The position numbers and the translations under genes are program-made. The notes under the pieces are model-generated. The model saw only the letters and a program-made list of their open reading frames with translations. It did not search any database and was not told where the DNA came from. This document shows positions 578 through 33,376 of a stretch of DNA of 33,376 bases, piece after piece. How positions within the stretch are numbered: position 1 is the first letter of the stretch; each line of letters starts with the position of its first letter. This stretch comes from Chrysochromulina tobinii (taxonomy: Eukaryota), in NCBI GenBank assembly GCA_001275005.1, contig JWZX01003200.1, forward strand, positions 1-33,376. Direction: 5' to 3'.

Positions 578-3500
578 ATGCGCCGTGTGCCGGTCGAGCG
601 GGCGGCGGCGGCGCGCGGCGACGGCACGCCGTCGACGCTTCGATCATCGCCTTCCAAGGCGGCCGGCGCACGATCGAGAACGGGAAAGAAGAAGAAGAAG
701 GCTTCCGGCTCTCCTTTGGCGGGTACTGCCGAGGAGGAGGACGAGGAGGAGGAGGAGGAGGAGGTGCGGGCGACCACACGTACGTCCCTCGCCACCGCAA
801 ACGCATGCGCGCAGCTCGTGGCTACCGCAGCAACGGTGGAGACCGCAGCAAGATTGCAGAAACTGCTGCACGGCGACCTTGCCGAGCAAGCGATCGCCGC
901 GCTGCTTGCGATTCCAAGTGCAATTGCAGGCCTGCTCGAAGCTGCGTCGAGCTCCAGCACGTCTACCGAGGCGCGAGTGCGGCTGCTTGGTTCCATTGCT
1001 GCCTGTCGTGGGCCCGGACCTTTCAAGGAGCTGGATCCGGAGGCGGAGCGCGAGGCGGTCACCGCTTGTCTCTCGATCCTAGCGGAACCGGACGCGTCCG
1101 TGGAGCTGCAGGCGTCGACTCGACGGCTACTACGCACGGCACAGCTAGAACCGCTTCGAGAAGCGTGCGTTGCAGCCCCCACCCTCCCCCAAAGACTGCA
1201 CGCCACCCTGCGCTTCAGCCGCACCCGCTGTGCGACCACCTACTCACAGTGCCGCTCTCCATTCGCCCAATTCGCAGGCTTGCGCTGCAGTGCAAGTTGC
1301 TTCAGGATGAAGCTGCCGCCGCTGCTGCGGCACGCACATTGGCCCGCGTGGCGGGGTTTCGCGAGCCGCCGCCATCGACGTTTGGCGCCCCCACCAGCTT
1401 CGGCTCAAACCAGGTGGCGCTTCTCGACGAGGTGCCCGGCGCTCTAGCGATCCTGGTGGCCGCGCTAGACAAAGCGAGTGCGTCATGTGCGGACGACCTC
1501 GGGCTCATCATCGCCGGCATTGCCGAAGCTCGCGGTGCGGGCTACCGGCTGCTCCTCGAGGCAGGCGCCGTGCCTTCGCTCTTGCGCCACCTGCCGCACA
1601 ATGCGTCCATGGGCGTAGCGCTCGCCATTGAATGCATCGCAGCGCACGAAAACGGTCAGGATGCGCTTTGTCAATGCAATGCGGTGCCACTGCTGGTGGC
1701 CGCGGCGTCGCAAGCTTCGAGCGCGGCGGCCGCGAGACGCTTTGCGTTCGCATTAGGTTGCTTGGCGGCGCACGCGAGTGCACGGGTGGAGCTCGCAAGC
1801 CTCGAGCATCGTGCCGCCAGCGACGACAAGGCGCTGGAGCTCTATGCCATGGCCGGGTTGACCACTCCTGGCTTCTTTGCAATGAGGGGGAGCGTGATGC
1901 AGCTGCTGCAATCGCTGTCGGCGCGTTCGCTGTCTCAAGGCGCGCTCTTGCTCATACGAGCGGTCGCAATCGCAGGTTCTCCAGAGCAAAAGTCTCAACT
2001 GATCACGAGCGGCAGAACATTCGAGATGCTCATCCAAAGCGTCGAGGTTGATGTGACTGGGTGGGCATGGTGTGCCCTCTCGCAGCTCGTCAGCTCAGAT
2101 CAGGGCCGCAAGCGCGCGCTCCAGCTCGAGCTGCCGCGCCGATTGCCCGCGGCGCTCTCGAGCAACTTCAAGGTGGCGTACCAAGCGCTAGTGGTCATTG
2201 ATCGGCTCTCAGTCAAAGCGACCAAAGCTGCCGCAGCGGTGCTGGCCACTGATGGAGTGATCTCCGAGCTAACCCGGCTGATTGCTGCGAGCGGGGAGGA
2301 CTATGAGGCACGATTCATGGCCAACGCAGCGGCGAACACGATCAAGAATGTGGTCGAGAGCGCGCCAGTGTCGTACGAACTGACGCCGCTCTCCGAGTGG
2401 AGCCTCGCTATGCAGGCGGCGAGCGTGCTCCAGCGCGCAGCGGTCGAGGCGCTCGAGCCGACGCTGAAGCTGCTGTCTCTGCCTGAAGTTGCGGATGCGA
2501 GTACAGATCATTTGGCTTCCCTCGCGTCCGTGCTTGCGAAGGGCGCTCACGGCTGCAGCTTGGCGCGCATCGCGCTCGGAAACGTGCTGCAGACGGACGT
2601 CACGGTAAAGAGCTCTCGGCTGCAGGACGCCTTGCTGCTACGAAACCGTCTGCTATCGGCATGCTACGACAACGGGGTGTGGGAGCCGACGCGCGACTTG
2701 GGTGTCGAGCTCATGGCAGTGCTAGAGCATGGGCTACGCGAGCCGGAGAGGTGCAGCGCGGCGCTCATTGTGCTTCACAGCTTACCCGACTTTGAGAGTA
2801 CAGTTGCGCCTGCCCTGATCAGCAAAGGCTCGGCCGTGCGTGAGCTTGTGGCACTGCTTGACCCCACCAGTCTAGATATTGCGCACTTTGCCCTCCGTGT
2901 GCTCTGTGTGGTGGCGAAGCTGCCAGGAGGGTACACAGCACTCGCAGATGCCGGTGCTCTCCAAGCGGCGGTGCAGCTCCTGCGCGAGAGGTTAAGGTCG
3001 AGCTGGTATTGCGCGGAATTGCTGAGCGCCGTCCTGAGCGCGGCGGACAGCGCGGGCGGCGACGAGCGGCGGCGCGTCGCCGATGCGGTCGTCGCCCTTG
3101 GCGCGGTGCCGATGCTCCAGGCGCAGGTCATGAACGACCCGCTCCTCCGACGCTCGACCACCGCCAGCTGCTGCACGCTGCTCACGCATCTCGCGCGGAC
3201 CGACGCGGGGGCGAAGGCGCTCAAGGCGCTGATCGACGCGCGCGCCGTGTGCGCGGTGCGCATGGTGGTGGCGACGAGCCACGCGCGAGCGGCGGCGATG
3301 AGGAAGGGCGGGCTGATGACCGCGGTGCGCCCTTGGCTCAAGGCGCTCCACAGCATGGCGCCAGCAGAGCGCGAGGCGACGCTGGGGCTGGTGAGTGACT
3401 TTGCCGCGGCGCGCGACGTGTCGACGGAGACGCACGTGCTGCCTCTGGTGCCGCTGATCGTGCCGATGGTGCAGTCGGTGATCAGTGGCGGCGTGTCAGC

Positions 3501-6500
3501 GCGCGACGCGTCGGCCGTCGCGGCTGTGAAGCTGCTGGTGTCGCTGAGCACCGAGCAGGCGGGGCTGCGGGCGGTGCACGGCGCGGGCGTGCTGCCGCTG
3601 CTGCTGCCGCTGATGCGCGCGGGGTCGGCGGCGGGCGAGGGCGCGTACATGAGCGAGGGGGGTGCGCTGCTGAAGCGCGCGCTGGCCGACGCGGAGGCGC
3701 GTCCGGCGGGCGTGCGTGTGGTGGAGGCGGTGGTGGGGATGCTGCCGGCGGCGGAGGGCGCAGGCTTTGATCCCTTTGACGCCGCGGAGGCGCGGTTCGC
3801 CTCGGAGCTGCTCATCACGTTTGTTTCTCATCAAGCCGTTGCAATGTGCGAGGCAGGCGTCTTGCCGCGGCTCGCCAAGGCTGCGAGTGAGGACGCATTC
3901 GTTGCGCCACGAAGGCTGTCGCAGCTTGCGGTGGAGATGCTCGCATCCCTCCTCCAACAGCGCCCGACGAGCAACGAGCTGACTCCCAGCATCACGCGGC
4001 TCCTCGTGCGCTCCGCGGACGGCGCCACAGCGCCTCATGCCGCACGTGTGGCCCTTCTTAAGGATGCATTGCCCGCATTGAGCAAGGAGGTCCGTCGGAA
4101 CATGGCGGAGGCGTGCATTGGCGTGCTGGGGCTGCGGAATGCGCCCGACGAGCTGCAGGAAGCGGCGGCACGGCGGCTGCTCGACGAGCCTGATCGCACA
4201 CTGCGTGCCGACGTATTGCCTCGCTGGTGTGCAGCGTTGCAGGCGGAGGATGCCGATGCTTCGAGCCGCACCGCGCGCGTGCTCGCGCGCGTAGAGGCCG
4301 CTGAGGTCGATGCCGTGCCGAGCGCGCTCCAATGCGTGATTACGGCGCTCGCCGAGGCCGCCCCTGCCGTAGCGAGCGACCTCGCATCCGTCGTGCATGC
4401 AATCGCGGGAGCTCGATCGCAAGCAGGCTATAGACTGCTGCTCGATGGCGGCGCAGTGCAGGCTCTTCTCCGGCAGCTGCCGCACGAGGACTCGTCCGTC
4501 AAGGTCGCCGAGGCGCTCGCGAAGCTCGCGCAAACCGACGACGGCCAGGACGAGCTGATCAGGGCGAAGGCGGCTCCACAGCTGCTAGCAGCGGCGCTCG
4601 AGGCTGCCGAGGATGCGGCCGCCGCCGACGCGATCCGTGCGCTCGCCCACCTTGCAGTGCACGCCGACGGGCGTGCGCAGCTGTCGAAGCTCGCGGAGCT
4701 TGCGCTGAAGGGGGAGCGCGCCCTGCGGCTCCTCGCCATTGCGATCGCGACGTCGAGCGTGTGCGCTCGTGCCGTGGCGGAGCCGGCGATGCGGATGATC
4801 GAGCCGGCGCTCGCGTCGCGTCGGCCACCGTCGACGGCCATGCTGAAGTTGCTTCACTCGGTCGTTACCTCTGGCGAGCTCAAGCAGGGCGAACAGATGG
4901 CAAACGACGCCGGAACGGAGGCCATCACATCCGCCATCGAGGGGGAGGATCCGTACGGGATCGCATTGCACTACTTGGTGGATCTCATAGCCAAGGTTGA
5001 CGAGGTCCGGTCGAAAGTGCTGCGGCTCAACCTGCTGGAGCGCATCCTGCTCCGCACCCTTGACGCAGACTCTCGACCTCAACGATACCAAGCAATCAAC
5101 TTGGTCATGGTCTTGAGCCGCTCCGAAGACGGCGCCGCCGCTGTGGTGCGCGTCGAGGGTGTCGTGGCGCGGCTTGCGCGCCTCGCCACAGATCAGCGCG
5201 ATTCTGGCCAAGCGTCCCATGCCGACGAGCAGCTGGCCACGCTGCTCAGCAAGCTCGCCGATGCAGCTACGGCGCAGGCCGCGCGCAACGTGGCGGCAGA
5301 CGAGCGCTTTGAGCCGCTGCTCCGCCTCAAGCCCGAGAGCAAGGCACTCGTGGCGCTGGTGCGCAGCGACAAGGGCCGTGCTCGAGCCCGCCGGGCGCTC
5401 GCGCACGTGCTCGCAACGAACGTGGGCCGCGAGGCCGAGTGCAAGCTGCTCTTTGGGCTTCTGAAGCCGTGCTACGAGGAATTCCGCTCCGAGTCCGAGG
5501 ACGTGGGCAAGCGGCTGGTCTACCTGGTGCAGCGCGATGGGGTCGAGCCCATCGACCGCGTGCGGCTACTGGATCACATCATCAATCACCCAGATGCGGC
5601 CAAGCTCAAGCAGCAGCTGGTGGCTGCGAAGACATTCCTTCCCGCCCTGGTCAAGGATTTGGACGAGGACAACGTGGAGACGGTCTCGACGGCCCTTCTT
5701 TGGTTGAACGCCTTCCCTGGCGTGGCCGGGGCGATTGTACCCTTGCTGGCCGCGCAAGTCGTCCATCGGACCATGGCCACCTTCCAAAAGCCAGGGCGCG
5801 ATCGGCAGTGCGACGATGCCGCGACTCAACTGCTTGAATCGCTACTCGGCACTGCCAACCGCGAGTCGAGCCAGACATACCGCTCGGTTGTGGAAGGGAT
5901 CCTCAGCCACGCTGCACGCCCATTGCTCGTCGAGGAGCTTCCGCGGCGGGACGCGAGCCGTCGGCTCGTTCGCGCCCTCGTGCAAAAGATCGAGCGTGGC
6001 GCGAGCGCCGATTTCCGAACGGTCGCCTCAGCCTTTTGTGAGAGCGCCGGGTTCCGGCAGCTGGTGGCCGAGTTGGCGAAGGGATCGCACGCCTCGTGCG
6101 CAATCACCGCTGACGACAAGAGCGGACGGGTGGCAGTCGACGTTGCTGCAGCCTCGCTGAGCGAGATCCTGAGCGCGGCGGACAGCGCGGGCGGCGACGA
6201 GCGGCGGCGCGTCGCCGATGCGGTCGTCGCCCTTGGCGCGGTGCCGATGCTCCAGGCGCAGGTCATGGACGACCCGCTCCTCCGACGCTCGACCACCGCC
6301 AGCTGCTGCACGCTGCTCACGCATCTCGCGCGGACCGACGCGGGGGCGAAGGCGCTCAAGGCGCTGATCGACGCGCGCGCCGTGTGCGCGGTGCGCATGG
6401 TGGTGGCGACGAGCCACGCGCGAGCGGCGGCGATGAGGAAGGGCGGGCTGATGACCGCGGTGCGCCCTTGGCTCAAGGCGCTCCACAGCATGGCGCCAGC

Positions 6501-9500
6501 AGAGCGCGAGGCGACGCTGGGGCTGGTGAGTGACTTTGCCGCGGCGCGCGACGTGTCGACGGAGACGCACGTGCTGCCTCTGGTGCCGCTGATCGTGCCG
6601 ATGGTGCAGTCGGTGATCAGTGGCGGCGTGTCAGCGCGCGACGCGTCGGCCGTCGCGGCTGTGAAGCTGCTGGTGTCGCTGAGCACCGAGCAGGCGGGGC
6701 TGCGGGCGGTGCACGGCGCGGGCGTGCTGCCGCTGCTGCTGCCGCTGATGCGCGCGGGGTCGGCGGCGGGCGAGGGCGCGTACATGAGCGAGGGGGGTGC
6801 GCTGCTGAAGCGCGCGCTGGCCGACGCGGAGGCGCATCCGGCGGGCGTGCGTGTGGCGGAGGCGGTGGTGGGGATGCTGCCGGCAGTGGAGGGCGCAGGC
6901 TTTGATCCTTTTGACGCCGCGGAGGCGCGGTTCGCGTTGCGCGTGCTTGAGCCGATCGTCCCCGTTCAAGCTAGTGATGCGGCTTCCGCTATGCCATCGC
7001 TGGTGGCAGTTCGTGAAGCGGGTGGCATCGCGCGCACATTGGCGGCGATGCGTGGTGACGAGTGGGCGCTGACGCGCTCGCTGGTCGCTTCGGCAGCATC
7101 GCGTGTTTCCGGTCTGCTCAACGACCCGGATGGCTTGGCGGTCGCGCACGACCTCGGCGCGCTCCGAACACTAGTCAACGCCCTCGAGCAGTGCCCCGAT
7201 GTGAGAATTTTTGACTTCCTCAGGCCGCTCCAGAGCTTTGTCCTCGCACCCGTTCACGCCTACCGTGACGCAATCCTCGACGCCGGCCTCCTGCCCCGCC
7301 TGGCCGGCTTTCTCAAGCCGGGGCCGTCGCACCCCGGCTTCCGCATCTCGAGTACCATGGTGCAGCTCCTCGCCAGCTACGGCGCGCCCGCCCACCGTGA
7401 GGCCGTCCGCTCGAGCGACGCGCTCGCTGCCATCCTCCACTGGCGCGCGAGCGGCCGTCTGGCCTCGAATGATACTACTACCACGATATCGCGTAGTACC
7501 ATGGTGTCGCGATCCTCGAACTTGGTCGGCTGGTTCGCCAAATGCCCGGCGGCGCACTCCATCCTGCGCCGCGCCATCGAAGAGCTGGGCGAAGACGCAG
7601 GAGGAAAGGACGAGGCCGCGCTCAAGCTGCTTACGTATGCGAGCGCCATGCCCGAGGGGGCGGCGGTCACCGTGGACGAGGGCGTCGTGCCCGCACTCAT
7701 CAAGCTGCTCGAGTCGGGCGCACGGAGCGCCCGACACGCCGAGGCGGCGCAATGCCTGCAAGTGCTCACGCGCATGCTACCGAAGCGCACAGCTCCTGCT
7801 GCGCCGGTGTGCAGGATGAAGGCCAGAGAGGCGCTCGACAAGCGCGAAGCGAGTGCGCTTGGTTACTGCTGTGCGCGTTCGCTTGGTTGCTTGGCCGAGA
7901 CCGCCTCCAAGGCTCGCTCCGCGATCCGCATTCTCGTCGCGCGCATTTTCGAAGAGGCCGACGGCGGTCGCGAGATCACCGCGATCTTGACGCTGAATCT
8001 GCTCGCTGTCGCGTGCGAGTCACCTGACGGCGCGCGTGTCGCATTCAAGGCGGGCGTGGTTGCCGAGGCGGTGCAAGCGCTGAGCGGCGCACGCGACACC
8101 CAATTGCGTGCGAGTGCCCTGAAAACCCTAACGTCGGTGGCTGAGAACAGCGAGGCGGCGAGAGCATCCATGCGCGACGGCAACCTCATTGACACCCTCG
8201 TGCGGCTCCTCCACCGCTCGTGGGCCGTTCCCTCCGCAGTGGATGCGGTCGTCATGGCCGGCAAGTCCAGCGCTGAGTCCAGCCATGTCGCTGCCAATGC
8301 CACGCCGCGATCAGCTTTCAAGTACAGCGCCTACCTTTCGCACGACAGCGCCCGCGACGAGCTCAAGCGTGACAATGTGGAACGTGTCGGGGCCGTCAAG
8401 GCAGCCCTCGCCAAGGCGGGCCTGGTGCCGTGCCTCGTCGATGCGGAGCGAGACGCCAACGACGTGATCCGGCAGATGGAGGAAGGCATCGCGCAGTCGG
8501 CGTGCGTGATCGTCTTCCTGACCGAGTCGTACATGAAAAAGGCCGCCGGGCTGGGCAGCAAGGGCGACGACGACAATGCGCGCTTCGAGTTCAGCCAGGC
8601 GTGCAGCCCGTCTAAAGGGGTCGCCAAGATCATCCCGGTGGTCATGGAGCCGCAGTGCCTCGCGCAGACGTCGTGGCAGCCACTCTTCCTTGGCAAGCTG
8701 GGAGGCAAGGAGTTTATTGACCTGGCCCGCGACAATGATGAAGCCAGCGGCGAGAAGCACTTTGATGACGGCGTGAGTAGCTTGATCTCGTCGATCAAGG
8801 CGATGCCTGGCAGCCTCGTCGGGGGGGGGGCGGCAACGGCGGCGCAGGTGGGATCATCGTCCACGGTCAATGAAGCACCCGCGGACGCGGCCGACGACAT
8901 GGACCGCGACATCGAGGTGGGCAAGTTGGCGCTGGCGCTCTTGCACACGCTCTCGCGGGGTGACGTGCTGCGGCAAGCCATTCAGGCCGCCAAGCCGCTC
9001 GACGCGCTGCAGTACATCATCGAGCACGATGCGGCACAGCGCGCCGACGCGCTGCTCATCGTGAGCAACGTCTACTCCGAGGTGCTGAGCCAGTCGGTGG
9101 GTAAGGGCCACGGCGCGGCCATGGTGCAGCATGAGCGCGTGCGCCGCCTGCTACACGACAGTCGCATCGAGGACGAGCTCGCACCCCGCCTCGTTGAGGG
9201 CGTTCGGATCCTCGTGAGTAGCAGAATTGTCTTTGAGATTGTCGTAGATGGCAGTGGCCCGTCCTACGCGCGCATCGCCGCGACCGCCGTGCGCAATTTG
9301 GCGGCCGAGTCGGTGCTGCGCCAGCGCCTCGTGCACAAGGGCGTGGGCAACAGCCTCGCGCGTATGCTCATCGAGGGGCCGCTGGCCCCGCACCCCACGT
9401 CGGACGCCGACCTCGTCCTGGCCGCTGAGGCTCTGCAGCGCTGCGCGCTCGCCATCACGGGCGCAGCAGAAGAGACGGATCGCATTCGGAAGCGGCTCGT

Positions 9501-11796
9501 CGCGGACGGAGCCGAGGACGCGCTCACCTCCGCCGCCGAGCTGCACGAGAACGAGGATGCCGATACGGAGAGCGTCCAGCGGCGTCGGCAGGCGGCCAAA
9601 TACGCCCTCGACGCGCTCCAAGGCAAGCTGGACGTGCAGACTCTCCCTGGCACAGGACACGCCCAGCGCACGCTCAAGCGGCAGCTCTCGACCCTGGGCA
9701 CCGACTACAGCAAGTGGGACGACCACCAGCTCCTCAGCATCCCGCGCTACAACACGTTCATCTCGCACAAGCGCTCTTCGGCGCAGGACTTCGCTCGAGG
9801 TCTGCATTCGCTCATCGTGCATCACGGCCACTCGTGCTTCATCGACGTAGAGAACCTCGAGTCACTCAGCGACCTGCCGATGGTGGTCGCGGGCTGCGAC
9901 GTGTTCATTCTGGTAAGCTGTGCTGCCGCATGCGTGCGATGGGATCTGATCGGCTCCCTACCTCAAATGCATGTCCACTCACGCGGTTCGTTTTCCCATG
10001 CACGCGCGTACCCGCGCCGCGCAGGTCCTGAGCGACGGCGTCTTCGAGTCCGAGTTCTGCATGCAAGAGCTTGCGAGCGCCGTCAACGCTGGCGTCGAGA
10101 TCGTCCTCATTACCAAGGAAGGCTCGCGCTGGCCCAACCAGAACGGCGACATGGTCGAGGTCTTCCCGCCGCCCGAGCTCATCAAGACGCTTGAGCCGCC
10201 CGAGTGCCGTGACGCGTTCGAGCGCCGCGCTATCACGCACTCGAACGAGTACTACGCCGCCTTCAGCCACAACCTCATGCAGACTGTGGACAAAATGATC
10301 AAGGAGCACCGCCACCAGTACCGCCAGGGGAACAGCCCGCCAGAGGGGCAGGACACCCCCGATCGGCTCGTCTTGACGCAGCGACGGCAGCTGCTCCTGG
10401 CGCGCAGCCAGAGTGCCAATCGCAGGAAGGGCTCCTCCGACACGGCTGCGGTCGCCATCGTAGAGTCCGCCGTCACGTCGCCCGTCAGCCTCGTGGACGC
10501 CAAGCGGCTGGAGGAGGCCATCAACGATCTGGGCGATGACCCGAAGCTCGACCCACGCGTGGTTGCGGCGGCGAAGCAGAAGCTGGAGCACGCCCGCGCG
10601 CAGAGCAAGTACACGCTCGAGGAGAAGCTCGCCGCGGCGCTCGAACGCACGGCATGCGAGTTTCAGTTCTTGCGTGCGAAAGTCCTCCTCGAACGAGACG
10701 ACATGTTCGCTCCCAAGCACAAAAGCGTTCAGGAGGACCCAGAGCTCTACAAGATGCTCTATCTCAAGTCGGCCGAGTGCTGCCAGCACATGTTCCGTGA
10801 GAAGGTCCTCGCCGTGTCGCATCGATGGGACCGGCTAGAAGAGCCTGATCCTTCGGGCGCTCAGATGAAGGCCATCAAGCGCATACTGCGCACCAACCCC
10901 CAATACGAGTACGTGTGGCTGGTACGTCGCAGCGCCCTCTTTGTGCATTCTCCTGCGGCTGGCTCCCAAAAGGCCCATTCCACTCTGACTCAATCAGATC
11001 GCAAATGCATGAGCTGACGACGTCTTCTCGCTTTGGCGTGCTTCTCCCCGGGAATGGGTGCGATCCGCAGGACTACAGTTGCGCACCGCAGGGCGAGCGC
11101 ACGCCGCAGGAGAAAGAGATCTTCAGCCTCACGCTCGAGAACATGGACTTTCTCTTCCTGGGCGCGTCGGTGCTCATCCTGCTCGATATGTCGTACATGT
11201 CGCGCTTTTGGTGAGAGCGAGCCGATTCCCCGCGTCATGCGATCGCGCTCCTCGACTGCTGGCATGGCGCTGAGATGTTCACACGCGTGTTCTGTTGTTA
11301 TTGGCGCAGGACCCAGTTCGAGGCTTGGATGGCGTTCCAGGAGGTCGACTCCAACGGCGTCCTGCGATGCGCTTCGGAGGATAACCGCCGATGCATGATT
11401 GAGTGCATCCACAACGCCAACAAGTACACCAAGCTGCAGCTGATCGAGATGTGGTCCAACAAGACGCCAGAGGAGGCGTACAACATCCTGAAGAGCGAGG
11501 ACGTGTCCGTCACCAACACGAAGGACAAGGAGCTGCAGCTGCCCCGTATCCAGACCTTCAAGGAGAGCGTGCAGAAGACTTGGCGGGCGGCGGTCGAGAA
11601 TGGAGAGATTCTGAGCCCCTCACGAAGGCCGAGATTCAAGTCCGACACCGAGACGGCGCTCGGCGAGCCGGCGAGCCCCTCGGTCAAGGGTGTCTTGGCG
11701 AGTCCCCAGCTCGCACCGTCGCCGTCGTTCTCGACTGTGCGTTTTGAGGCAGACTCATCCACCGAGCAGGGCGTCATGCTCATAAAAAGCGTTTGA
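578..11796 (+). CDS. Giant ARM-repeat protein with two TIR domains and a C-terminal HET-like domain (~3,581 aa; exons 578-1164, 1278-9912, 10025-10921, 11071-11210, 11310-11796)
   Basis: Four GT-AG introns join ORFs 509, 418, 9971, 10915 and 11275 in consistent phase. Splicing restores motifs across junctions (DVFIL|VLSDG, YVWL|DYSC, SRF-W-TQFE). ARM-like GAVxxLxxLL helical repeats run throughout. Exon 1 aligns to the second solenoid copy (TACLSILAEPDASVELQASTRRLL vs EACIGVLGLRNAPDELQEAAARRLL). Confidence 0.85.
1165..1277 (+). other. Intron 1 of giant gene (113 nt, phase 2)
   Basis: GC|GTGCGT...TTCGCAG|G. Removing it switches ORF 509 into the frame of ORF 418 and gives PLREALALQCKLL. Confidence 0.75.
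3032..3800 (+). repeat. 769-bp in-frame intragenic duplication, copy 1
   Basis: Matches 6167-6935 (offset 3135 nt = 1045 codons) with about 6 substitutions counted by eye. Confidence 0.95.
6167..6935 (+). repeat. 769-bp in-frame intragenic duplication, copy 2
   Basis: Matches 3032-3800; same peptide LSAADSAGGDERRR...FDPFDAAEARFA. Confidence 0.95.
8317..8790 (+). other. TIR domain 1 (algal/protist TIR_2-type) within giant protein
   Basis: YSAYLSHDS...DNVERV...MEEGIAQSACVIVFLTESY...DNARFEF...KIIPVVME...FIDL follows the TIR beta/alpha order. Glu codon at 8587-8589. Confidence 0.8.
9748..10290 (+). other. TIR domain 2 (SARM1-like) within giant protein, split by intron 2
   Basis: FISHKRSS...CFIDVENLE...CDVFILVLSDGVFESEFCMQELASA...IVLI...HSNEY. 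Compare SARM1 TIR motifs FISYRR, VFIDVEKLE, FVLVLS, WVHKEI, WSHEY. Glu codon at 10067-10069. Confidence 0.85.
9913..10024 (+). other. Intron 2 of giant gene (112 nt, phase 0)
   Basis: CTG|GTAAGC...CGCGCAG|GTC. Removal restores the TIR beta-C strand VFILVLS. Confidence 0.9.
10922..11070 (+). other. Intron 3 of giant gene (149 nt, phase 0)
   Basis: CTG|GTACGT...CCGCAG|GAC, with an internal CTGAC branch-like motif. Confidence 0.85.
11211..11309 (+). other. Intron 4 of giant gene (99 nt, phase 2)
   Basis: TG|GTGAGA...GGCGCAG|G rebuilds the Trp codon of SRFWTQFE. Confidence 0.85.
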
Positions 11797-17247: not shown

Positions 17248-18287
17248 GGAGGAGGCGGAGGTGGATGGGAGATTGGGTGTAGCTCAGCGGAGGCGGCCGA
17301 TCCCCTCGGGTTCTGAGAGGTATAGCAGTGCGCCTCCACCTGCGACCATCGAGCAGCGGGCAATCTTAGTGGATCGGCGCGAGAGGACGCCGCTCCTGCG
17401 CCATCTGCTCGACAGCCAGGGCTGGGCGCGCTGCCTGGTCTTCGTCGGCAGTCAAAAGGCAGCGGACCACGTGGCCTCGAAGCTCAAGAACTCTGGGTCA
17501 GCTGATGGCCGCTGATGGCCGCTGAGGGCTGCTGAGGGCTGCTGAGGGTTGCTGAGGGTTGCTGAGGGCCGCTGACCTCTGATGCCACTGATGAGGGCTG
17601 CTGTGGGCTCTGGCCGGCTCTGGTCGCCATTGATTTGCCTCGGATCGCCTCTGCTTCCCCACCTGAGTGCCTCTGAGTGCCTCCCTCATCAGGTACGACT
17701 CCGAGGCGCTCCATGGCGGCTTGACGCAGGAGGTGCGCGCCTCGCGCCTTCGTGCCTTTGATCGGGCGGAGCTGCGCGTGCTCGTGGCCACGAACGTCGC
17801 GGCGCGTGGCCTCGATGTGGTCGGGCTAGAGGCGATCGTCAATTACGAGCTGCCCCGCTCTACGAGCGACTATACCCACCGGGTCGGCCGGACAGGGCGT
17901 GCTGGCCGGGCGGGCGTCGCCGTTTCCTTTGCGGCCAGCACCGGAGCTGGCAATGAGGAGCACTTCGCGCTCATTGAGCGGCGGCACGCGATGCGGGTGC
18001 CGCGAGAGGTCCTGCCGGGGTTTGTGCCAAAAGAGGTGGACCCCCTGCGTGTAACGACCAGTGAGGTGCAGCTGCGTGATGAGGCGGCGGTTTCGGACGC
18101 CGGGCAGGGGGTGACAGAGACGGAGGGCTTGGCGCCACTGGATGTTTCGGTGCCGGGTGTGCGCCATTCCAAATTAGGGCTCGCGCACGATCGTATGCAT
18201 GGCGGCGTCAAAGGGCGGCGGTTGAGCAAGAAGGACAAGCTGAGAGCGCAGCATGCTGAGGCTGTCCGACGGGTAGGTCCGACGTAA
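16355..18287 (+). CDS. DEAD-box RNA helicase, bacterial RhlE-like, with N-terminal targeting peptide (~578 aa; exons 16355-17496, 17693-18287)
   Basis: Q motif PTSVQ, APTGSGKT, PTRGLA, TPGRLLD, DEAD, SAT, VATNVAARGLD, HRVGRTGRAG. The splice gives KLKNSGYDSEALHG. Confidence 0.92.
17204..17245 (+). repeat. (GAT)14 microsatellite encoding poly-Asp in the helicase inter-domain linker
   Basis: 14 perfect GAT units read directly from the sequence. Confidence 0.95.
17497..17692 (+). other. Intron of helicase gene (196 nt, phase 2) built from 10-nt tandem repeats
   Basis: GG|GTCAG, then GCTGATGGCC/GCTGAGGGCT/GCTGAGGGTT units, ending CTCTGAGTGCCTCCCTCATCAG|G. Confidence 0.88.
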
Positions 18288-23439: not shown

Positions 23440-23580
23440 GGTTCACAGCCAGCCCCTCCTTTCTAGTGTGAATGGGGGCTCCCTGCGTGAGGACTGGTGC
23501 CCGCGCCGGGCCGACTCCCCTTTGGGGAAAACGGGGAGGAGTGGTTGACTTGACTTGACTTGACTTGGTTCACAGCGAGC
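23440..23580 (+). mobile_element. ~115-bp insert ending in stem-loop + (GACTT)4, flanked by a 10-14-bp direct repeat; candidate SINE or truncated LINE 3' end
   Basis: GGTTCACAGCCAGC (23440-23453) and GGTTCACAGCGAGC (23567-23580); CTCCCC...GGGGAG stem just before the GACTT x4 tail (23547-23566). Confidence 0.55.
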
Positions 23581-25337: not shown

Positions 25338-27338
25338 ATGTCTTCGGCCTACTTGCGAGGCGTCACCTGGGCCGAGCAGACGCTCACGCCGCTCGCCGAG
25401 CGTATCATAGCAACGATCGAGGACCCGCCCGAGCAACCGCTCGCGCCAAAGACGCCGGCGCGCGACCTGGAATCGGAGCTCCTGCAGGGCGGCCACAGCA
25501 CGCTACGGAGCTGCGCCGGGAGTGCGACAAGGACCCCAGCGTCTTCATCGGCGCCGGCTGAATTTGTGACGAAGGCGGAGGCGCAGCAGCTCCGTGCCGA
25601 CTGCGATGCCCTCTTGCAGCAGCGCGAGCGGCTCCGTGCGCAGCTGATCGTGGAGCAGGAGCGGCGTGAGCGCGCCGAGGCAGAGCTGGTCGCGGTCGGC
25701 GCGCAGTGGCTGGGCACGGAGACCCAGGATGCGTTGCGCCAGCGCGCCGAGCTCGAGAAGAAGCGCGAGCTGCAGCTCGCGCGCACCGCCATCCAGCGAG
25801 AGGCGGACCAGCGCGTGGCGAAGCTCGAGGCTGAGCGTACGATGCTTCTCGAGAAGCTGGGCGAGAAGGCGCCGAGCGCGGCGCAGCTGCGCATGCAGCT
25901 GCGCGCGGCCCTCCAGCAGGAGCTCGAGCAGGCGCAACGCGAGGCGCGTGAGGCAGTGCGCGCACATCTCAATGCATCCTATGAGGAAAGATCGCGGCTC
26001 CGCACGGCGCTGTCCACGGCGGAAGCGATGCATCGGCTCGAGGTCGAGGCGCTGCGTGCGTCGCTCCGCAAGGCCTCGGAGCTCATGCAGGAGCAATATG
26101 ACAAGGGTTTCGTCATGGGGCTCAAGGAGGCGGCCTCCGCACTCGCGCCCGCGATCGCGCCCACGACGGCTTCCGCCACGTCGGCAGCTCGAGTGGAGCA
26201 TATGCCCACGACGGCGTCCGCCACGTCGGCCGCTCGAGAGGAGCATGCGGCGGCAGCTGCGCCGTCAGCGCCCACGACGGCACCCGTCATGACCTTGACC
26301 ATTGCCCTCGTTGGGTGCATCAACGGGGTTGGGGTTGGCCTGGATGCAAGCAACCTCGTCAACATGCTTGCAGAGGGCTCCCCGGCGGCGGCTTCGGAGC
26401 TTCGGATGGGTGATAAGGTCATTCTTTGGAACGGTGTGGCCATGATTGATCCGGTGTGTGGGCGCCAACGCAAGCTCAAGGAGGTGGTCGTGCGCAGCGA
26501 TACGCACACTCTGGTTGTGGAGCGAGCTGGCGCCGCCGCCCAGTCAGACACAGCGTCTGCCAGCCAGGGGGGGATGGCGGCGGCGGCGGCAGTGGACAAG
26601 GCGGAGTACCGCCGCATGAAGGAAGCGCTCGTCGAGAGGCTTGAGGCGGAGCGTGCTGAGAAGGCTAGGCAGGCGCAGAAGGCTAGGCAGGCTGTGAAGG
26701 CTATGGAGGATGACGAGGGCGCAGGAAAGGCGTTGGAGGATGAGCGCGTGGCTGATCTCGGAGATGATCTCGGAGGAAAGGCGTTGGAGGATGAGCGCGC
26801 GGCTGATCTCGGAGATGATCTCGGAGGAAAGGCGTTGGAGGATGAGCGCGCGGCTGATCTCGGAGATGATCTCGGAGGAAAGGCGTTGGAGGATGAGCGC
26901 GCGGCCGTGTGCGATGAGAAGCGGGCTTGTCAGGGCGCGCACATCGCTATGCCCCCCCCGCCCCCACCCCCCCCAACCCAGGGCGAGCCACCTCCGGGCG
27001 AGGTACGCGCCGTTCCGGGCGAGCACCGCCGTTCCGAACGAGCCGAGGCGCGCAGCAGCAGCAGCAGCAGCAGCAGCAGTTGCCTGGCGAAGGGCATGGT
27101 AGCGCCACCGGAGGTCGATGGGGCAGGCGAGCTCGATCTGGGCGATGAGGCCAGCGAGCTTGCTGAGGAAGATGAAGAGCTCGATCTCGGCGATAATCTC
27201 TGCCCTATACACCAGGGCGAGGCGGAGGCTGAGGCAGCCCCGCCCCCGGTGCCCACTGCACCACCGCAGGGAGCGCTGCTCACCGGCTTAAAGGTGCGGG
27301 CCGCAGGCGCAGCGCCGCAGTCAAGCACCGTGTCGTAG
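25338..27338 (+). CDS. Coiled-coil + PDZ domain protein with repetitive acidic C-terminus (~666 aa)
   Basis: Long E/Q/R/L heptad region; PDZ-like GVGVGLDASNLVNMLAEGSPAAASELRMGDKVILWNG...HTLVVER (~26290-26530). Confidence 0.7.
   Translation: MSSAYLRGVTWAEQTLTPLAERIIATIEDPPEQPLAPKTPARDLESELLQGGHSTLRSCAGSATRTPASSSAPAEFVTKAEAQQLRADCDALLQQRERLRAQLIVEQERRERAEAELVAVGAQWLGTETQDALRQRAELEKKRELQLARTAIQREADQRVAKLEAERTMLLEKLGEKAPSAAQLRMQLRAALQQELEQAQREAREAVRAHLNASYEERSRLRTALSTAEAMHRLEVEALRASLRKASELMQEQYDKGFVMGLKEAASALAPAIAPTTASATSAARVEHMPTTASATSAAREEHAAAAAPSAPTTAPVMTLTIALVGCINGVGVGLDASNLVNMLAEGSPAAASELRMGDKVILWNGVAMIDPVCGRQRKLKEVVVRSDTHTLVVERAGAAAQSDTASASQGGMAAAAAVDKAEYRRMKEALVERLEAERAEKARQAQKARQAVKAMEDDEGAGKALEDERVADLGDDLGGKALEDERAADLGDDLGGKALEDERAADLGDDLGGKALEDERAAVCDEKRACQGAHIAMPPPPPPPPTQGEPPPGEVRAVPGEHRRSERAEARSSSSSSSSSCLAKGMVAPPEVDGAGELDLGDEASELAEEDEELDLGDNLCPIHQGEAEAEAAPPPVPTAPPQGALLTGLKVRAAGAAPQSSTVS
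26160..26247 (+). repeat. 45-bp coding tandem duplication (PTTASATSAARxEH x2)
   Basis: Two near-identical units read directly from the sequence. Confidence 0.85.
26724..26905 (+). repeat. 51-bp coding minisatellite x3.6 (GKALEDERAADLGDDLG)
   Basis: Units start at 26724, 26775, 26826 and 26877; one substitution (V/A) in unit 1. Confidence 0.95.
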
Positions 27339-27896
27339 GCCCGGCCGAATCGTACGGGCGCCGTGTTCCGAGGTTCTCGTTTATCGACACACGCCACGCT
27401 CGCCGCACGCTCGCCAGTGTCCAGAGTCCCGGGTGACCCACGTCGGCCACGAGCACGACCCAAAGCGCGAAGCAAGTGTGACGTCGCTCGTCATCGCGGA
27501 TAACATTTTTCGCAATAAACGCACGTTCGACCGAAGTTTAACGTGTGACGCGACGAGCCCAGTGTCGTGTCTAGCTCGTAGCTCTAGCTGCGCGTCGGTG
27601 TGCTTACTAACGGATATACGGTATCTAGCCTGTACCGGGCGTCTAAAGACGAGGTGGGTCAACTTCGCGCGCCGCCTCGCCTTCGCTTGTATCGTGGCCT
27701 AACGCGCGCCTGTGCGCCGTGCACGCGTTCCTAACATACCTCCGGTTCCCGGGGCACCCCTTGCGGTACCGCCGGTCCCGATCCTATCAAAAGACATGCA
27801 TTCGATAATTGTCGGCGCTGATAGATCGACCGCTCTGAGTGCAGCCGCACCAGCTCACTCGCCCACGGCCTTTTGCCTCACTTGCGTCCTCGGTCT

Positions 27897-29090
27897 TCAC
27901 TTGTCCAGCACGCCGCATGCCGTGATGGTGACCGGCTTGCTGGGCTTCCCCGCCGAATCGCCGAGCGCCTCGATGCGCTTGACAATCTCCATCCCCGAGG
28001 TCACCTCGCCGAAGACGACGTGCTTGCCGTCCAACCAGGGCGTCTCCGCCACCGTGATGAAGAATTGGGAGCCGTTTGTATCGGGACCCGAGTTCGCCAT
28101 CGAAAGCAGCCCTGCCTTCTCGTGCTTGATGCCAAAGTTCTCGTCAGCAAAGGTGCGCCCATAGATGGACTCGCCGCCTGTCCCATCCGCGTTGGTGAAG
28201 TCGCCGCCCTGCAGCATGAAGCCCGGGATGATGCGGTGGAAGGTGCTCCCAGCGAGCTTGAGCGGCTTGCCCGCCTTGCCGACTCCCTTCTCGCCCGTGC
28301 ACAGCGCGCGAAAGTTGTCCGCCGTCCTGGGCACCTGGTTGCCGTGCAGCCCGAGCTCCATCAAGGGCAATCAAGGATAATCCAGGGAGATCCAGGGAGA
28401 TCGCACCTGGTTGCCGTACAGCCCGAGCTCCATCAAGGGCAATCAAGGATAATCCAGGGAGATCCAGGGAGATCGCACCTGGTTGCCGTACAGCCCGAGC
28501 TCCATCAAGGGCAATCAAGGATAATCCAGGGAGATCCAGGGAGATCGCACCTGGTTGCCGTACAGCCCGAGCTCGACCCGTCCGGCCGCCTCGCCGTCGA
28601 TCGCGAGGTCCAAGTACGTCCTGACGGTGACGGTGGTGTCGGGCGGCGTGTACTGGGAGCGCAGCAGGTACTCCCAGCGCCCAAAGTCCTTTTTGACCAG
28701 CTCAAGCACCACGCATCGCCCTTTCTCCTCCACGTTGTCAATCTCCCAGAATGCCTCCTCGGAGAGCACGCGGCCCCAGAGCGCCTCGCCGTCGATCGGC
28801 AGCGCAGCACCCTTGACGCCCAGCGTCAGCACGCCGCGCGCAAGGCTAAATACCACGTCCTTTGAGTCCACGTCGGACGCGATCGGCATCGTCACAATGC
28901 ACTTGTCGTCCTTGTCGTCGTAGGAGAACGATGGTGGCGCAGCCGCTGCGCCGCCGCTCAATGCGAGCACCGCCGCTCGATGACGGGTGGACACCGCCGA
29001 CAATCGAGTGGCTGACAAAGAGCGATGCGTCAGCAGTGCCGCGCTGACCGACTGCAGAAGGAGCAGGCCGACGAGCGACGACGTCATCAT
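27897..29090 (-). CDS. CS (p23/NudC-like) domain + cyclophilin peptidyl-prolyl isomerase with signal + transit-like N-terminus (~325 aa; exons 29090-28551, 28334-27897)
   Basis: [20 protein letters not shown]-like LTLGVKG...[18 protein letters not shown]...VVLELVKK...WEYL; cyclophilin [61 protein letters not shown]. Confidence 0.92.
28335..28550 (-). other. 216-nt intron consisting of three 72-nt tandem units, each GT...CAG
   Basis: Unit = 48 nt (GTGCGATCTCCCTGGATCTCCCTGGATTATCCTTGATTGCCCTTGATG) + 24-nt copy of the upstream exon end (GAGCTCGGGCTGTACGGCAACCAG). Each unit has an in-frame TGA. Confidence 0.9.
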
Positions 29091-29502
29091 GAGCCAAATC
29101 AAGTTGGAAGACGACGCGTGTACCCGGTAAAAAGACACCCGCGGGGGGAGCCGGGACACACACGGGACACGCAGACGCACAAAGGCACACGGACCGCACA
29201 GACGAACCTCACAACCATCCAAACCCACCAACAACGCGCAACCCTCACGTCCGCGCGACGAACGAGGCCGCGGCCGACTCAAGAGCCGCAGGCCCGGAGT
29301 CGACCGCCCCCCGCGGCCGACTCAGAAGAGGCCACCCCCAGCGAACCCGACCCTGCCTCCACCCGCACCCAGAGCGCCTCCCCGCGCCTGCTACCGTTCA
29401 CGAACGCACAAGACAAATACACCAGGAAAAAAGCAGGGACCTGCGGTATATGTCGGACCGGTGCCGGTCTTGATCGTGTTCTCCCCTCCGTTTTTCCCGG
29501 TG

Positions 29503-29679
29503 TGGGGAAGAAGTCAAGTCAAGTCTATACATAAACAACAGACAACCATACGGAAGCCTATCGAATGTGCTCCGGAAGCCAGCAGGGGAGGACGGGAGTC
29601 GATGGAGATGGCGGAGGGAGATCCATCTAGAGGTGACACGTCATAAATTTGACTTGACTTGACTTGACTTGGGGAAGAA
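29503..29679. mobile_element. ~160-bp insert with inverted (AAGTC)3/(GACTT)4 ends and flanking direct repeat; MITE-like or double-tailed retroposon fragment
   Basis: (AAGTC)3 at 29511-29525 and (GACTT)4 at 29651-29670. GGGGAAG abuts both ends (29504-29510, 29671-29677), extendable to TGGGGAAGAA with overlap. Confidence 0.55.
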
Positions 29680-29791: not shown

Positions 29792-32700
29792 ATGTCCAAG
29801 GCAAAGTCCACTCCGGATGCCCCGGCGGAGAAACCCCCCAGGGGTTCCTTCGCCATGCTGCTCCAATTTGCGACTTGGTCCGACTGCCTACTCATGTCGC
29901 TCGCGGGGGTGATGCAGTTCGGCGTTGGCGTCGTGATGATCTTGCCGCTGATATTCTTCCAGGATTTCTTTGATACTGCGGGCAACTCGCAGTCGACTGG
30001 CATGGCCATCGACATGAAACAGGTCTCGTATGTCTGCCAATGGTTGGTCTACCTCTCCCTCATCATGATGGTGCTCTTCTTCTTCGCCTTCCTGCTCAGC
30101 GGCTTTCCGGCGATCAACCAGAAGGCGGAGTGGAAGAAGCGCGTGATCAAGTCCATCCTCCGGCAGGACATCGGCTGGTTCGACGTGTCGCACCCCGAGG
30201 AGCTGGCGTCCAAGATGAGCGAGGGCATCACCCGCGTCTACAAGGCGGTAGACTCCCCCTCGTACATGGTCTTTCAGGGCATTGGCATGGGCCTGGGCGG
30301 CTTTGTGTTCGGCTTCATCAAGGATTGGTACGTGGCGATCTGCACGTTCGCCGTCGTGCCGCTGCTCGTCGTCTTCTTCGGGCTCTTCCTCTGCACCCTC
30401 TGGCGAAGCTCCAAGGTGACCGCTGCGGCATACAACGGAGCCAACGGCCTCGCGACCGAGGCGCTCTTCTCAATGCGGACGATCGCATCGTTGTCCATTG
30501 AAAAGGACTTCGCGACCCGCTACAAGCAGAGGCTGACGGCCGCGGCGGTCGCGCAGGCGGGGGTGGCTCCTCTCAAAGGCTTTACCGGCGGTCTCGCTCA
30601 GGCGAGTTTCATGCTCCTTCTCATGGTGGGCTTCCTTTCCGGAGGCTTTCTTGTGGCCGACGAGATGGATCGCTCTTCGTACGCTTACTCGGTGACCCAG
30701 ACCTTCTACCCCTTCCCGGGCGCGAACGCGACGATGGTCGAGATCGGCTACTGCGCGGACGACAAGAATACCCCAGCGGAAGTGCTAGGCCTCGGCGGTC
30801 AGCCTTGCCCTGCTCCCTACCAGTCGCTCCAGATGAACTGCTTGCTCATGGGGTTCGTCGGATCGATGGGCGACTCGAGCGTCTTCCCGGGCTCGAACAT
30901 GAGCTTCGTCAACGCCCTTGGGCACACGACGATCGACGAATTCGAGGCGGAAGCGCAGCGCATGGCTCCCGAGGACTTTAAAGCCAAGTTTCGTGCCGAC
31001 GGTCGCCCACTCACGATGGGTTGCTACGCCTCTGGTGCGGCGATCATTATCGTAGTCTTTGCCATCATGAACGGCGGACAGGGCTTCGGCAACTTGCTCG
31101 ACCCGGCTTCCAAGGTTGGTGTGGGGCTGGGAGCCGCCGCCAACCTGCACCAAATCTTGGCGCGTAAGTCGGCAGTCGACCCCTTCTCGGAGGACGGCGA
31201 GCGGCCCGACGGCGTGACCGGCGACATCGAGATCCGCGACGTGGTCTTCGCGTACCCGTCGGCCATCGAGCATCTGGTGTGCAAGGGGTACTCCCTGCGC
31301 ATCAGCGCCGGGCAGACGGTGGCGCTGTGCGGCGCGTCGGGCTCGGGCAAGTCGACGATCATCCAGCTGCTCGAGCGTTTCTACGACCCGCAATCGGGCG
31401 CGCTTCTGCTCGACGGGCGCGACATCAAGACGCTCAACGTGCGCTGGCTGCGCTCGAAGCTGGGTCTCGTCGGGCAAGAGCCCGTGCTGTTCCAGGGCAG
31501 CGTCGCGACGAACATTGCATACGGCAAGACCGATGCGACCCGCGAGGAGATCGAGGCGGCCGCGCGCATGGCGAACGCGCACGATTTCATCATGAAGAAC
31601 CTCAACGACGGATACGACACTGACGTCGGCCTGCGCGGCGGCAAGCTGTCTGGCGGCCAGAAGCAGCGTGTGGCGATCGCCCGTGCGATTGTGAAGAAGC
31701 CGGCGGTGCTGCTGCTCGACGAGGCGACGTCGGCGCTGGATAACGAGAGCGAGCGGATAGTGCAGGCGGCGCTGGACGAGATCATGTCGAAGCAGAAGCG
31801 CACGACGATCGTGATCGCACACCGGCTGAGCACGATTCGCAACGCAGACAAGATCGCTGTGGTGAGCGAGGGCAAGGTGGTCGAGGAGGGCACTTACGAT
31901 GAGCTACTCAAGCTGGACGGGGGCCTCTTTCACAAGCTTGCTCAGCGTCAGCAGGAGATGGGCGCCAAAGACATGAAAACCATGGACGCCGCACGTGCCG
32001 CTGCTTCCAGCAACCCACTCGTCGGTTTGACCGCGCTCCCCTCGCACACGGCATCCGCTGTCAAGGACCGCAAGGGGCGTACCTCGAAGGAGAGGCGTAA
32101 CTCGAAGGAAATGGTGACAGCCACCGCCGAGGAAAGCACGACAGAGGCGTCGATGGCAGAAGGCATTGAGGTTGGCTCTCCGATGCCTGTTGGCATGACG
32201 AAGGCTGTGGAGAAGAACAACTACATCAGCCAAGTGCTCCGCCTACAGACGGGCTCGCTCTGGGCGCTCGGGTTGGGGTGCCTCTTTGCAATGGGCACGG
32301 GCGCCTCGCCCCTCGTCGGCTTCTACTACATTGTCGACTTTTTCGGCGCGCTCTTTCAGCTCTCCGGCGCCTTGATCCGCGCCGAGGTCGCTCGTGTCTC
32401 GATCACCATCCTGATCATCTGCGCGATCATGGTGATTTGCTTCACACTCGACAGCGGCTTCTTCGGTCTCGCCGCGGCGCGACTCACGGCCACGCTTCGC
32501 CGACACGCCTTCGATGCCTTCCTCCGGCAAGACATCGGCTTCTTCGACCTCGACTCCAACTCGGCCGGTGACCTCACGTCTTTCTTGGCAGAGAAGGTGA
32601 CTCTGATGGAATCACTCACGGGTGGCTCGGCGCAGGCCATCGTTCGGGTCCTCGCGTCGCTCGTGTCGATGCTCGTGCTCGTCTTCTGGTTTGGGCCATG

Positions 32701-33376
32701 GCAGCTCGCTCTCTTCCTCTTTGGCGCCGTGCCGGTGATCATGTGCGTCATGGGCGTCATGATTACCGTCCTGGCAGGGGACGAAATCAAGGCGCAGAAG
32801 GGACAGGAGGTCAAGTCCGCCCACCACGTGGCCGAACGCTCGGCAGGTAAGCTGCTCAGTGAGGTGGTGCTCTCGATCCGCACAGTCGCCTCCTTCAACG
32901 CAGAGGAGCGCTTCTACAATGAGTTTGTCGTCGGAGTCGACCGAATTCGCGCCCTCGAGGCGCCAAACCAGATCAAGATCGCTTTGGCCATGGCCTGCTC
33001 CATTCCGATGATGATGTACGTCTTTGCAGCCATGTACTACTACCTGGGCTACCTCATCTCCCAGGGCGACACCACTTTCGAGAAGGGCATGCTGCCCCTG
33101 TTCGCGATGATGGGCGTCCTGATGCCTGTCATCGCGGCCGCCACCGGCGTCAGTGACATCAACCAGGCCAAGAACGCGGCGAAGCGCTACTTTGAATCCG
33201 TCAACCGCAAGACGCTCATCCGACCCCTTCTCGGAGGACGGCGAGCGACCCGACGGCGTGACCGGCGACATCGAGATCCGCGACGTGTTCTTCGCGTACC
33301 CGTCGGCCATCGAGCATCTGGTGTGCAAGGGGTACTCCCTGCGCATCAGCGCCGGGCAGACGGTGGCGCTGTGCGG
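29792..33376 (+). CDS. ABCB/MDR (P-glycoprotein-type) full transporter, 3' partial, with +1 frameshift at ~33221
   Basis: Absent from the ORF track because no stop is reached. Translation from ATG 29792 gives TMD1 (ILRQDIGWFD), NBD1 (GASGSGKST, QEPVLF, LSGGQKQRVAIAR, LLLDEATSALD, IAHRLST), TMD2 (FLRQDIGFFD, IRTVASF) and the start of NBD2. Confidence 0.93.
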   Translation, partial: MSKAKSTPDAPAEKPPRGSFAMLLQFATWSDCLLMSLAGVMQFGVGVVMILPLIFFQDFFDTAGNSQSTGMAIDMKQVSYVCQWLVYLSLIMMVLFFFAFLLSGFPAINQKAEWKKRVIKSILRQDIGWFDVSHPEELASKMSEGITRVYKAVDSPSYMVFQGIGMGLGGFVFGFIKDWYVAICTFAVVPLLVVFFGLFLCTLWRSSKVTAAAYNGANGLATEALFSMRTIASLSIEKDFATRYKQRLTAAAVAQAGVAPLKGFTGGLAQASFMLLLMVGFLSGGFLVADEMDRSSYAYSVTQTFYPFPGANATMVEIGYCADDKNTPAEVLGLGGQPCPAPYQSLQMNCLLMGFVGSMGDSSVFPGSNMSFVNALGHTTIDEFEAEAQRMAPEDFKAKFRADGRPLTMGCYASGAAIIIVVFAIMNGGQGFGNLLDPASKVGVGLGAAANLHQILARKSAVDPFSEDGERPDGVTGDIEIRDVVFAYPSAIEHLVCKGYSLRISAGQTVALCGASGSGKSTIIQLLERFYDPQSGALLLDGRDIKTLNVRWLRSKLGLVGQEPVLFQGSVATNIAYGKTDATREEIEAAARMANAHDFIMKNLNDGYDTDVGLRGGKLSGGQKQRVAIARAIVKKPAVLLLDEATSALDNESERIVQAALDEIMSKQKRTTIVIAHRLSTIRNADKIAVVSEGKVVEEGTYDELLKLDGGLFHKLAQRQQEMGAKDMKTMDAARAAASSNPLVGLTALPSHTASAVKDRKGRTSKERRNSKEMVTATAEESTTEASMAEGIEVGSPMPVGMTKAVEKNNYISQVLRLQTGSLWALGLGCLFAMGTGASPLVGFYYIVDFFGALFQLSGALIRAEVARVSITILIICAIMVICFTLDSGFFGLAAARLTATLRRHAFDAFLRQDIGFFDLDSNSAGDLTSFLAEKVTLMESLTGGSAQAIVRVLASLVSMLVLVFWFGPWQLALFLFGAVPVIMCVMGVMITVLAGDEIKAQKGQEVKSAHHVAERSAGKLLSEVVLSIRTVASFNAEERFYNEFVVGVDRIRALEAPNQIKIALAMACSIPMMMYVFAAMYYYLGYLISQGDTTFEKGMLPLFAMMGVLMPVIAAATGVSDINQAKNAAKRYFESVNRKTLIRPLLGGRRATRRRDRRHRDPRRVLRVPVGHRASGVQGVLPAHQRRADGGAVR
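33221..33376 (+). repeat. 156-bp near-identical copy of 31177-31332 (NBD2 start vs NBD1 start)
   Basis: Only 2 mismatches (CGG/CGA, GTC/TTC). The match runs to the window end. Confidence 0.95.

Follow-up and report, generated by a model that had tools for sequence, protein, structure and literature searches.

The sole intron found in the CS-domain cyclophilin gene of Chrysochromulina is a 216-nt array of three 72-nt units placed end to end, each of which opens with a donor and closes with a copy of the end of the upstream exon. This arrangement was probably produced when satellite-like filler recently entered an AG/GT site of the exon, with duplication of 24-28 nt, and was then tripled by unequal exchange. 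The evidence is drawn from the window (the whole 33,376-nt stretch of Chrysochromulina tobinii DNA that was analysed), from RNA and DNA sequencing runs and from related alleles and proteins.

Structure of the array and its host gene

Cutting out positions 28335-28550 yields a reading frame of 325 aa, and the gene and its array are composed of the following features:

28551..29090, minus strand: coding part of exon 1, 180 aa; RNA contigs extend to 29085 and 29089
28551..28574, minus strand: live exon end, the template for the copies, coding ELGLYGNQ; the RNA contig of run X12 has 0 other letters here
28335..28550, minus strand: GT-AG intron, 216 nt, phase 0, supported by an RNA joint that skips 216 nt
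28479..28550, minus strand: unit 1, a 48-nt core plus an exact 24-nt exon copy, by sequence comparison
28407..28478, minus strand: unit 2, same sequence as unit 1, which it adjoins at CAG/GTGCGA (28479/28478)
28335..28406, minus strand: unit 3, the same core plus the exon copy at 28358-28335; it adjoins unit 2 at 28407/28406
28361..28371, minus strand: two CCTTGAT motifs, recurring in each unit, whose A is 26 and 36 nt upstream of the acceptor
28335..28355, minus strand: 21 nt called exon by the KOO23360.1 and C. parva models, with a GAG acceptor at 28356
27897..28334, minus strand: coding part of exon 2, cyclophilin domain (PF00160, E 1e-42), stop TGA

Read along the minus strand, the exon end (28574-28551) is followed by the three units and then by exon 2, which begins GTGCCC; TRF reports 28331-28574 as a tandem repeat of period 72 with 3.4 copies and 99% matches. 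The 48-nt cores are identical in all three units, and the first two 24-nt exon copies are identical to the live exon. A first-pass annotation, made from the sequence alone, had described three units each ending in the same 24 nt; this is accurate for units 1 and 2, but the copy in unit 3 carries T>C at 28346 (TAC>CAC), and it is this copy that gives the acceptor CAG in use. The same annotation placed CAG/GTGCGA at the internal junctions, with a zero-length exon between, and the sequence bears this out, the acceptor directly abutting the donor at both positions. The 24-nt exon match scored above all of 1000 shuffles and is thus not a chance resemblance. The first 4 nt of exon 2 also belong to the repeat, which brings it to 28 nt ending AG/GTGC; depending on whether GTGC came with the insert or from the target, the duplication would measure 24 or 28 nt, respectively. 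The remaining 44 nt of the core are 4.4 copies of a 10-mer (GATCTCCCTG twice, GATTATCCTT, GATTGCCCTT and GATG), and the share of each unit that is not derived from the exon is 44-48 of 72 nt. No terminal inverted repeats were found in the array, just a 6-nt palindrome within the exon copy, and no copy of the core was found elsewhere in the window.

Each unit has the elements of a small intron. The core of unit 1 contains the donor GTGCGA, the 10-mer filler and an in-frame TGA at 28517-28515, and every unit has TGA in frame at codon 12. The adenosines of the CCTTGAT motifs resemble branch points and may serve as such. Every unit also has GAG at position 51, where splicing would add seven codons and no stop; the earlier statement that any retained unit introduces TGA therefore applies to whole units, while the GAG acceptor opens an in-frame route.

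Exon 1 likely encodes a signal or transit peptide, followed by what appear to be a CS-like domain and the first cyclophilin strands. The CS domain was matched weakly (E 1.2e-4) and on the 94%-identical full-length protein P0002 only; a search with exon 1 of the window alone gave no match. KOO23360.1, the C. tobinii reference protein, agrees with both exons with 0 differences but carries the insert LGLHGNQ, and the C. parva reference model has the same insert, in both cases because the GAG acceptor at 28356 was used.

The number of units in DNA was estimated from read depth. In DNA run X11, single-copy pieces had depths of 39.7-50, a junction-spanning loop piece 75.6 and an 84-nt repeat piece 100.6; in DNA run X9, the 84-nt piece reached 126.2 versus 44.9-54 for single-copy pieces. 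The depth ratios of the 84-nt piece are 2.24 and 2.54, and the overall estimate is ~2.2-2.7 units. More than one unit is certain, three units in DNA are likely, and a mixture of two- and three-unit alleles is possible. The depth ratios below three might be read as favoring an assembly artefact of one 72-nt unit, the outcome that the first-pass annotation had named as fatal to its reading, and locus L001 of a metagenome scan is the window's own DNA (99.98%) and hence offers no independent support for the array. However, the loop piece can exist only if at least two units abut, and it was found not only in X11 but also in the RNA runs X13 and X15. An artefact of this kind is scarcely credible, and the tandem array is real, with abutting units above single-copy depth in X11 and the repeat piece likewise in X9. 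Protein records carry no information on unit number.

Repeats of other kinds occur in the window. Just upstream of the cyclophilin start codon, 29104-29300 is a very high-copy short repeat, with a summed depth of 19,000-62,000 in X9 versus about 50 for single-copy sequence; the sister-haplotype proteins P0043 and P0050 translate sequence similar to it in the opposite orientation. By eye, ~29505-29675 is MITE-like, with inverted ends (AAGTC)n and (GACTT)n between repeated CTTCCCC, and another (GACTT)n run lies at ~23545-23570. A 51-nt tandem repeat of 3.6 copies (26723-26905) is in frame within a long plus-strand ORF, and a stop-free frame of 3258 codons at 418-10194 on the plus strand is rich in alanine and leucine and includes a near-exact internal duplication 3135 nt apart. 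A 156-nt segment of an ABC-transporter-like gene (31177-31332) recurs at 33221-33376 with small indels, and L001 runs on through a second, 734-nt copy (98.8%).

Splicing of the array in RNA

Assembled contigs from three RNA runs (X12, X13, X15) and two DNA runs (X9, X11), of 21 listed, were compared; runs X18-X21 contained next to none of the locus's words. A contig of depth 8.45 from X12 joins 28330 to 28547, skipping 216 nt bounded by CT..AC on the plus strand (equivalent to GT..AG), with 0 other letters relative to the window and with the upstream exon's TAC (Tyr) codon, and X12 has no cover across the intron core. This joint was present in one of the three RNA runs and in neither of the DNA runs. 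As judged from that one contig, the 216 nt constitute a spliceosomal GT-AG intron, which is out of RNA, is in DNA and restores the frame when removed. A 28-nt direct repeat can provoke reverse-transcriptase jumps, and such a jump could mimic the joint, but it would hardly leave the intron without cover; furthermore, the conserved protein needs removal of the 216 nt. The RNA contigs of X12, X13 and X15 end at ~27592-27602 where the DNA contig continues to ~27057, a weak hint that they represent transcripts and not DNA.

Intron-bearing sequence was present in X13 and X15 at depths close to that of exon 1, with no joint listed; X13 has no cover at 28315-28454, a gap to which no weight is given. 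The pieces in X15 had depths of 2.1, 4.0 and 6.3, i.e., the 1:2:3 ratio of intact unspliced three-unit molecules, with low counts and with the ratio blurred by an unlisted entry piece whose depth of about 4 was deduced from bin residuals. The low counts and this entry piece leave room for partial products, which are possible.

The first-pass annotation had proposed a search of RNA for products retaining 72 or 144 nt, and the three low-depth runs answer it in part. No joint of 72, 144 or 195 nt was listed in them. Retention of the first units should show up as a 72- or 144-nt joint, and retention of the last unit or the last two should be invisible to contigs, since no 31-mer is unique to such products. 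There is about an even chance that most molecules lose the array in a single cut between the outer splice sites; piecewise removal of units is a serious but lesser prospect, and a mix that includes stalled products is rather doubtful. Each partial cut would rebuild a shorter version of the same array, so that every route could lead to one and the same mRNA, provided that re-use is not blocked by the exon junction complex.

A stronger version of piecewise removal is improbable, namely that units are removed singly as a rule, by recursive splicing through zero-length exons, and that TGA-bearing stalled products tune expression via NMD. By sequence each unit is a complete intron, the donors share an identical context, the founder allele would have been spliced as 72 nt, and intron-bearing pieces do occur in X13 and X15, all of which favor it. 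However, the X15 depths fit intact unspliced molecules, blurred as they are by the entry piece, no 72- or 144-nt joint was listed, and there was no sign of regulation. The site is missing from the sister haplotype, unlike the conserved ratchet points in long introns, and the exon junction complex can suppress regenerated donors, both according to the accessible portion of PMC8605326.

Use of the GAG at 28356 as the true acceptor would give a protein of 332 aa containing LGLHGNQ, and the in-frame insert is found in both KOO23360.1 and the C. parva model. This is very unlikely nonetheless: the 195-nt joint appeared in none of the three RNA runs while the 216-nt joint was seen, the insert is present in none of 22 homolog hits, and the seven codons change freely between alleles. 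GAG is a rare acceptor. The public cyclophilin models of C. tobinii and C. parva appear to hold seven residues that are absent from the RNA contig.

Age and origin of the intron

Alleles with and without the intron were found among very close relatives. In a cluster of 38 members, all 15 listed members read into the same intron start, while a 31-member cluster that is 94% identical is uninterrupted at the site in 9 of 15 listed members. These uninterrupted sister members lie on contigs of up to 25,486 bases, and two of them translate upstream non-coding DNA, indicating that the uninterrupted alleles are genomic. The other 6 of the 15 are ORFs that start at an ATG before the last copy; two of these, P0040 and P0042, have a sister-type exon 2 and may mean that the intron is in the sister haplotype too and was lost from some alleles, which would be easy because direct repeats flank it, or they may be GTG-start calls instead. 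Among 22 homolog hits, some of which may be transcripts, 19 read straight across the site, two are interrupted there and one breaks earlier. The metagenome scan gave eight loci, including, besides L001, one that stops before the site (L005) and L006-L008, two of them near-identical, which are genomic, have their own introns elsewhere and are continuous at the site; none of the eight supplied intron DNA of a close relative. Since the sister haplotype and most orthologs are intronless, the intron is young. The comparison of intron presence among relatives suggested in the first-pass annotation has thus been made, and the intron's absence from close relatives points to a recent gain, with the direction suggested by the outgroups.

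The last exon copy has begun to decay. It is altered in 12 of 16 listed downstream ORFs (to H, C, C+Y or A) and the acceptor Gln codon position is retained in all 16, whereas the copy in the exon is altered in none of 25 listed alleles (0/16 read-through, 0/9 uninterrupted); these counts are of sequences among those listed and not of independent events. The H variant is common to the C. tobinii and C. parva models. The intron is thus young, yet old enough for several changes.

The distant homologs P0012 and P0067 (50% identical) have an intron of ~79 nt at the same Q/V site, with a V-R-S start in the read-through, and raise the alternative that the intron is old. On that account the exon-intron boundary of an old intron was duplicated as a 'mirage' repeat, the intron's own 3' end was lost, the exon copy now acts as the acceptor, and the relatives have lost the intron. 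The repeat unit does cross the exon-intron boundary, as in the mirages described for amphioxus in the accessible text of PMC3087553. Nevertheless, no remnant of another 3' end was found within the intron, and the P0012 intron is unrelated to the 216-nt intron beyond the donor. A tree of 20 exon-1 parts, from which P0015, P0017 and P0018 were left out because introns break their exon-1 part, forces at least two intron changes, with none of 200 bootstrap trees giving one; a starred branch joins the window with the intronless P0002, apart from P0012. An old intron would also need many separate losses, and parallel gains at one site account for 48% of new Daphnia introns in the available part of PMC4202315. 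The P0012 intron would fit a parallel gain, an old intron position also being possible; for the 216-nt intron itself, an old origin is unlikely.

Sequences resembling the core occur at other loci. Of the 8 records listed out of 29 in X11, five are separate contigs, 428-2176 nt long, in which donor and core are matched over 50-53 nt with 6-7 differences (86-88%), four of the five at single-copy depth; their loose ends are mixed consensus (agreement 0.58-0.88), with far ends unreadable. Summed depth on the core reached up to 1232 versus about 45, which is not a copy number; it hints at tens of core look-alikes. Core patterns had 0 matches in prokaryote genomes. Matches in viral contigs were dropped: three in one search arose by chance, another search gave none, and 16 further matches, in contigs with no relation to the locus, are AT-rich repeats built on a different unit.

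Among seven candidate introns in the window and L001, of which only the 216-nt intron was checked in RNA, an exon copy lies at a splice site in two, another shows a weak match internally (uncorrected p of 0.007 in 14 tests) and the other four lack any copy. The second with an exon copy is the predicted plus-strand intron L001:1363-1560, whose first 32 nt, at the donor, are a decayed copy (25/32) of the downstream exon start and whose 3' part repeats a 64-nt unit 2.6 times, with CAG/GT at the joins; its footprint would be the mirror image of that of the 216-nt intron. The weak match is in L001:887-1023 (plus strand, predicted), which includes blocks of 10-mer satellite and, internally, 11 nt that match the next exon, while a predicted 196-nt DEAD-box helicase intron (17497-17692, plus strand) is mostly 10-mer satellite with no exon copy.

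Recent entry of filler into the exon, the origin that we favor, may be pictured in three steps. From the filler would have come the remainder of the donor and a motif resembling a branch point, and from the duplicated exon end the spacing and CAG; with these the 72-nt founder would already have functioned as an intron without altering the protein. The repeats could then have misaligned, with exon end plus core being copied so that complete mini-introns came to lie end to end; the inner copies do match the live exon and not the last copy, which is what copying of exon end plus core as one unit would give. The final mRNA would have an intact reading frame, the joint for which was seen in one run. 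The same unequal exchange could also delete the intron precisely. The filler may have come from a mobile element or from satellite DNA captured during break repair. No selected function is needed, and the array likely multiplied without harm to the gene. Against this proposal stand the reliance of the joint on a single contig of depth 8.45 in one of three RNA runs, the chance of a reverse-transcriptase jump at the direct repeat, the intron-bearing sequence with no listed joint in X13 and X15, the interruption of P0012 and P0067 at the same site together with the ambiguity of P0040 and P0042, and the nearby candidate introns with no exon copy or a weak internal match only. The earlier suggestion that the intron is young, that a 24-28-nt duplication gave it an acceptor and that tandem growth followed is supported by the intronless sister and outgroups and by the decay of the last copy.

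Relation to known routes of intron gain

The published systems compared here are described from the accessible portions of the cited sources. In the Rogers model, an intron arises when an exon segment containing AGGT is duplicated in tandem (PMC4974935, which also cites fission-yeast 24-bp repeats in SPOG_01682 and SOCG_00815). Common to that model and the present array are a duplicated exon segment with AG/GT that supplies splice sites, an unchanged protein and one intron over several copies. The array differs in having 44-48 nt of non-exon, satellite-like DNA between the copies and in that each unit is a full-size intron; as judged from composition, it has the AG/GT duplication but is not made of exon alone, and it falls outside the class in the strict sense.

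Introners provide a second comparison. An introner of marine Chrysochromulina sp. makes a 4-bp duplication and has its own 5' site and a co-opted 3' site (10.1101/2022.06.06.494994), and in the class 14 introner of Polarella an AGGH duplication supplies both splice sites (10.1101/2020.10.14.339549). The array resembles these in its donor on the insert, its acceptor from duplicated target, its lack of terminal inverted repeats, the similar sequences at other loci and its aquatic protist host; many introner families are likewise without terminal inverted repeats (10.1101/2022.06.06.494994). However, the target duplications described for introners in these sources are 3-8 nt (10.1101/2020.10.14.339549), whereas here they are 24-28 nt (~32 nt at L001:1363). 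The core relatives are 86-88% alike, the core is a 10-mer satellite, and the element is amplified in tandem. Because the core is such a satellite with relatives of this similarity, shared sequence need not mean transposition. With no inverted repeats and a long duplication of unfixed length, the array does not qualify as a DNA-transposon introner. Replitrons (PMC10288648), which might account for the length of the duplication, were set aside because neither terminal motifs nor signs of a transposase were found here.

Gain during staggered double-strand-break repair, described in Daphnia (PMC3443670; PMC4202315), shares with the array its youth, its presence or absence in close relatives, filler between direct repeats and a second, unrelated intron at the site. 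The repeats there are described as short, versus 24-28 nt here, and the filler here resembles other introns of the genome. The 'mirage' minisatellites of amphioxus are repeats with AG/GT signals across an exon-intron boundary that keep normal splicing (PMC3087553). Like them, the tandem units here span the boundary with splice signals and the edge copy escapes homogenisation, but mirages sit in an old intron with its own acceptor, while here the intron consists of the repeats alone, with the last copy acting as acceptor. Ratchet points of recursive splicing, which are conserved and lie in long introns (PMC8605326), also have an acceptor abutting a donor at AG/GT; the junctions here appear to be incidental consequences of a repeat that arose recently in an intron of 216 nt, are missing in the sister haplotype, and are candidate sites only. 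With a short intron and an unconserved site, they are not ratchet points in that sense. Further comparison papers on known kinds are PMC12130899 and PMC11282704, and the accessible part of PMC4580454 mentions introns once. A literature search, mainly of openly available papers and, for the introners, of the main text, found no long exon-duplicating introns described in haptophytes.

On these comparisons the array would first resemble an introner that brings its own donor, or a duplication filled during repair, and afterwards a mirage. It is a variant of known intron-gain routes, set apart by its long duplication, satellite-like filler and tandem amplification. The sources of new introns are seldom identified, and here the footprint is legible and unusually long. 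As alleles with and without the intron coexist in very close relatives, the route of gain is testable in populations, and the long repeat predicts precise loss and tandem growth through recombination. With three equivalent donors and three nearly equivalent acceptors packed into 216 nt, the array is also a natural test of whether the spliceosome re-uses a fresh junction. More tentatively, and as a possibility we would not call likely, freshwater Chrysochromulina may have an active process, different from the introners described so far, that writes short pieces of 10-mer satellite into exons with variable 15-32-nt duplications giving the acceptor, the donor or both, the resulting introns then multiplying into abutting mini-introns that are removed piecewise, or vanishing precisely. 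If this were true, the gain, amplification and loss of introns would all be watchable among living alleles.
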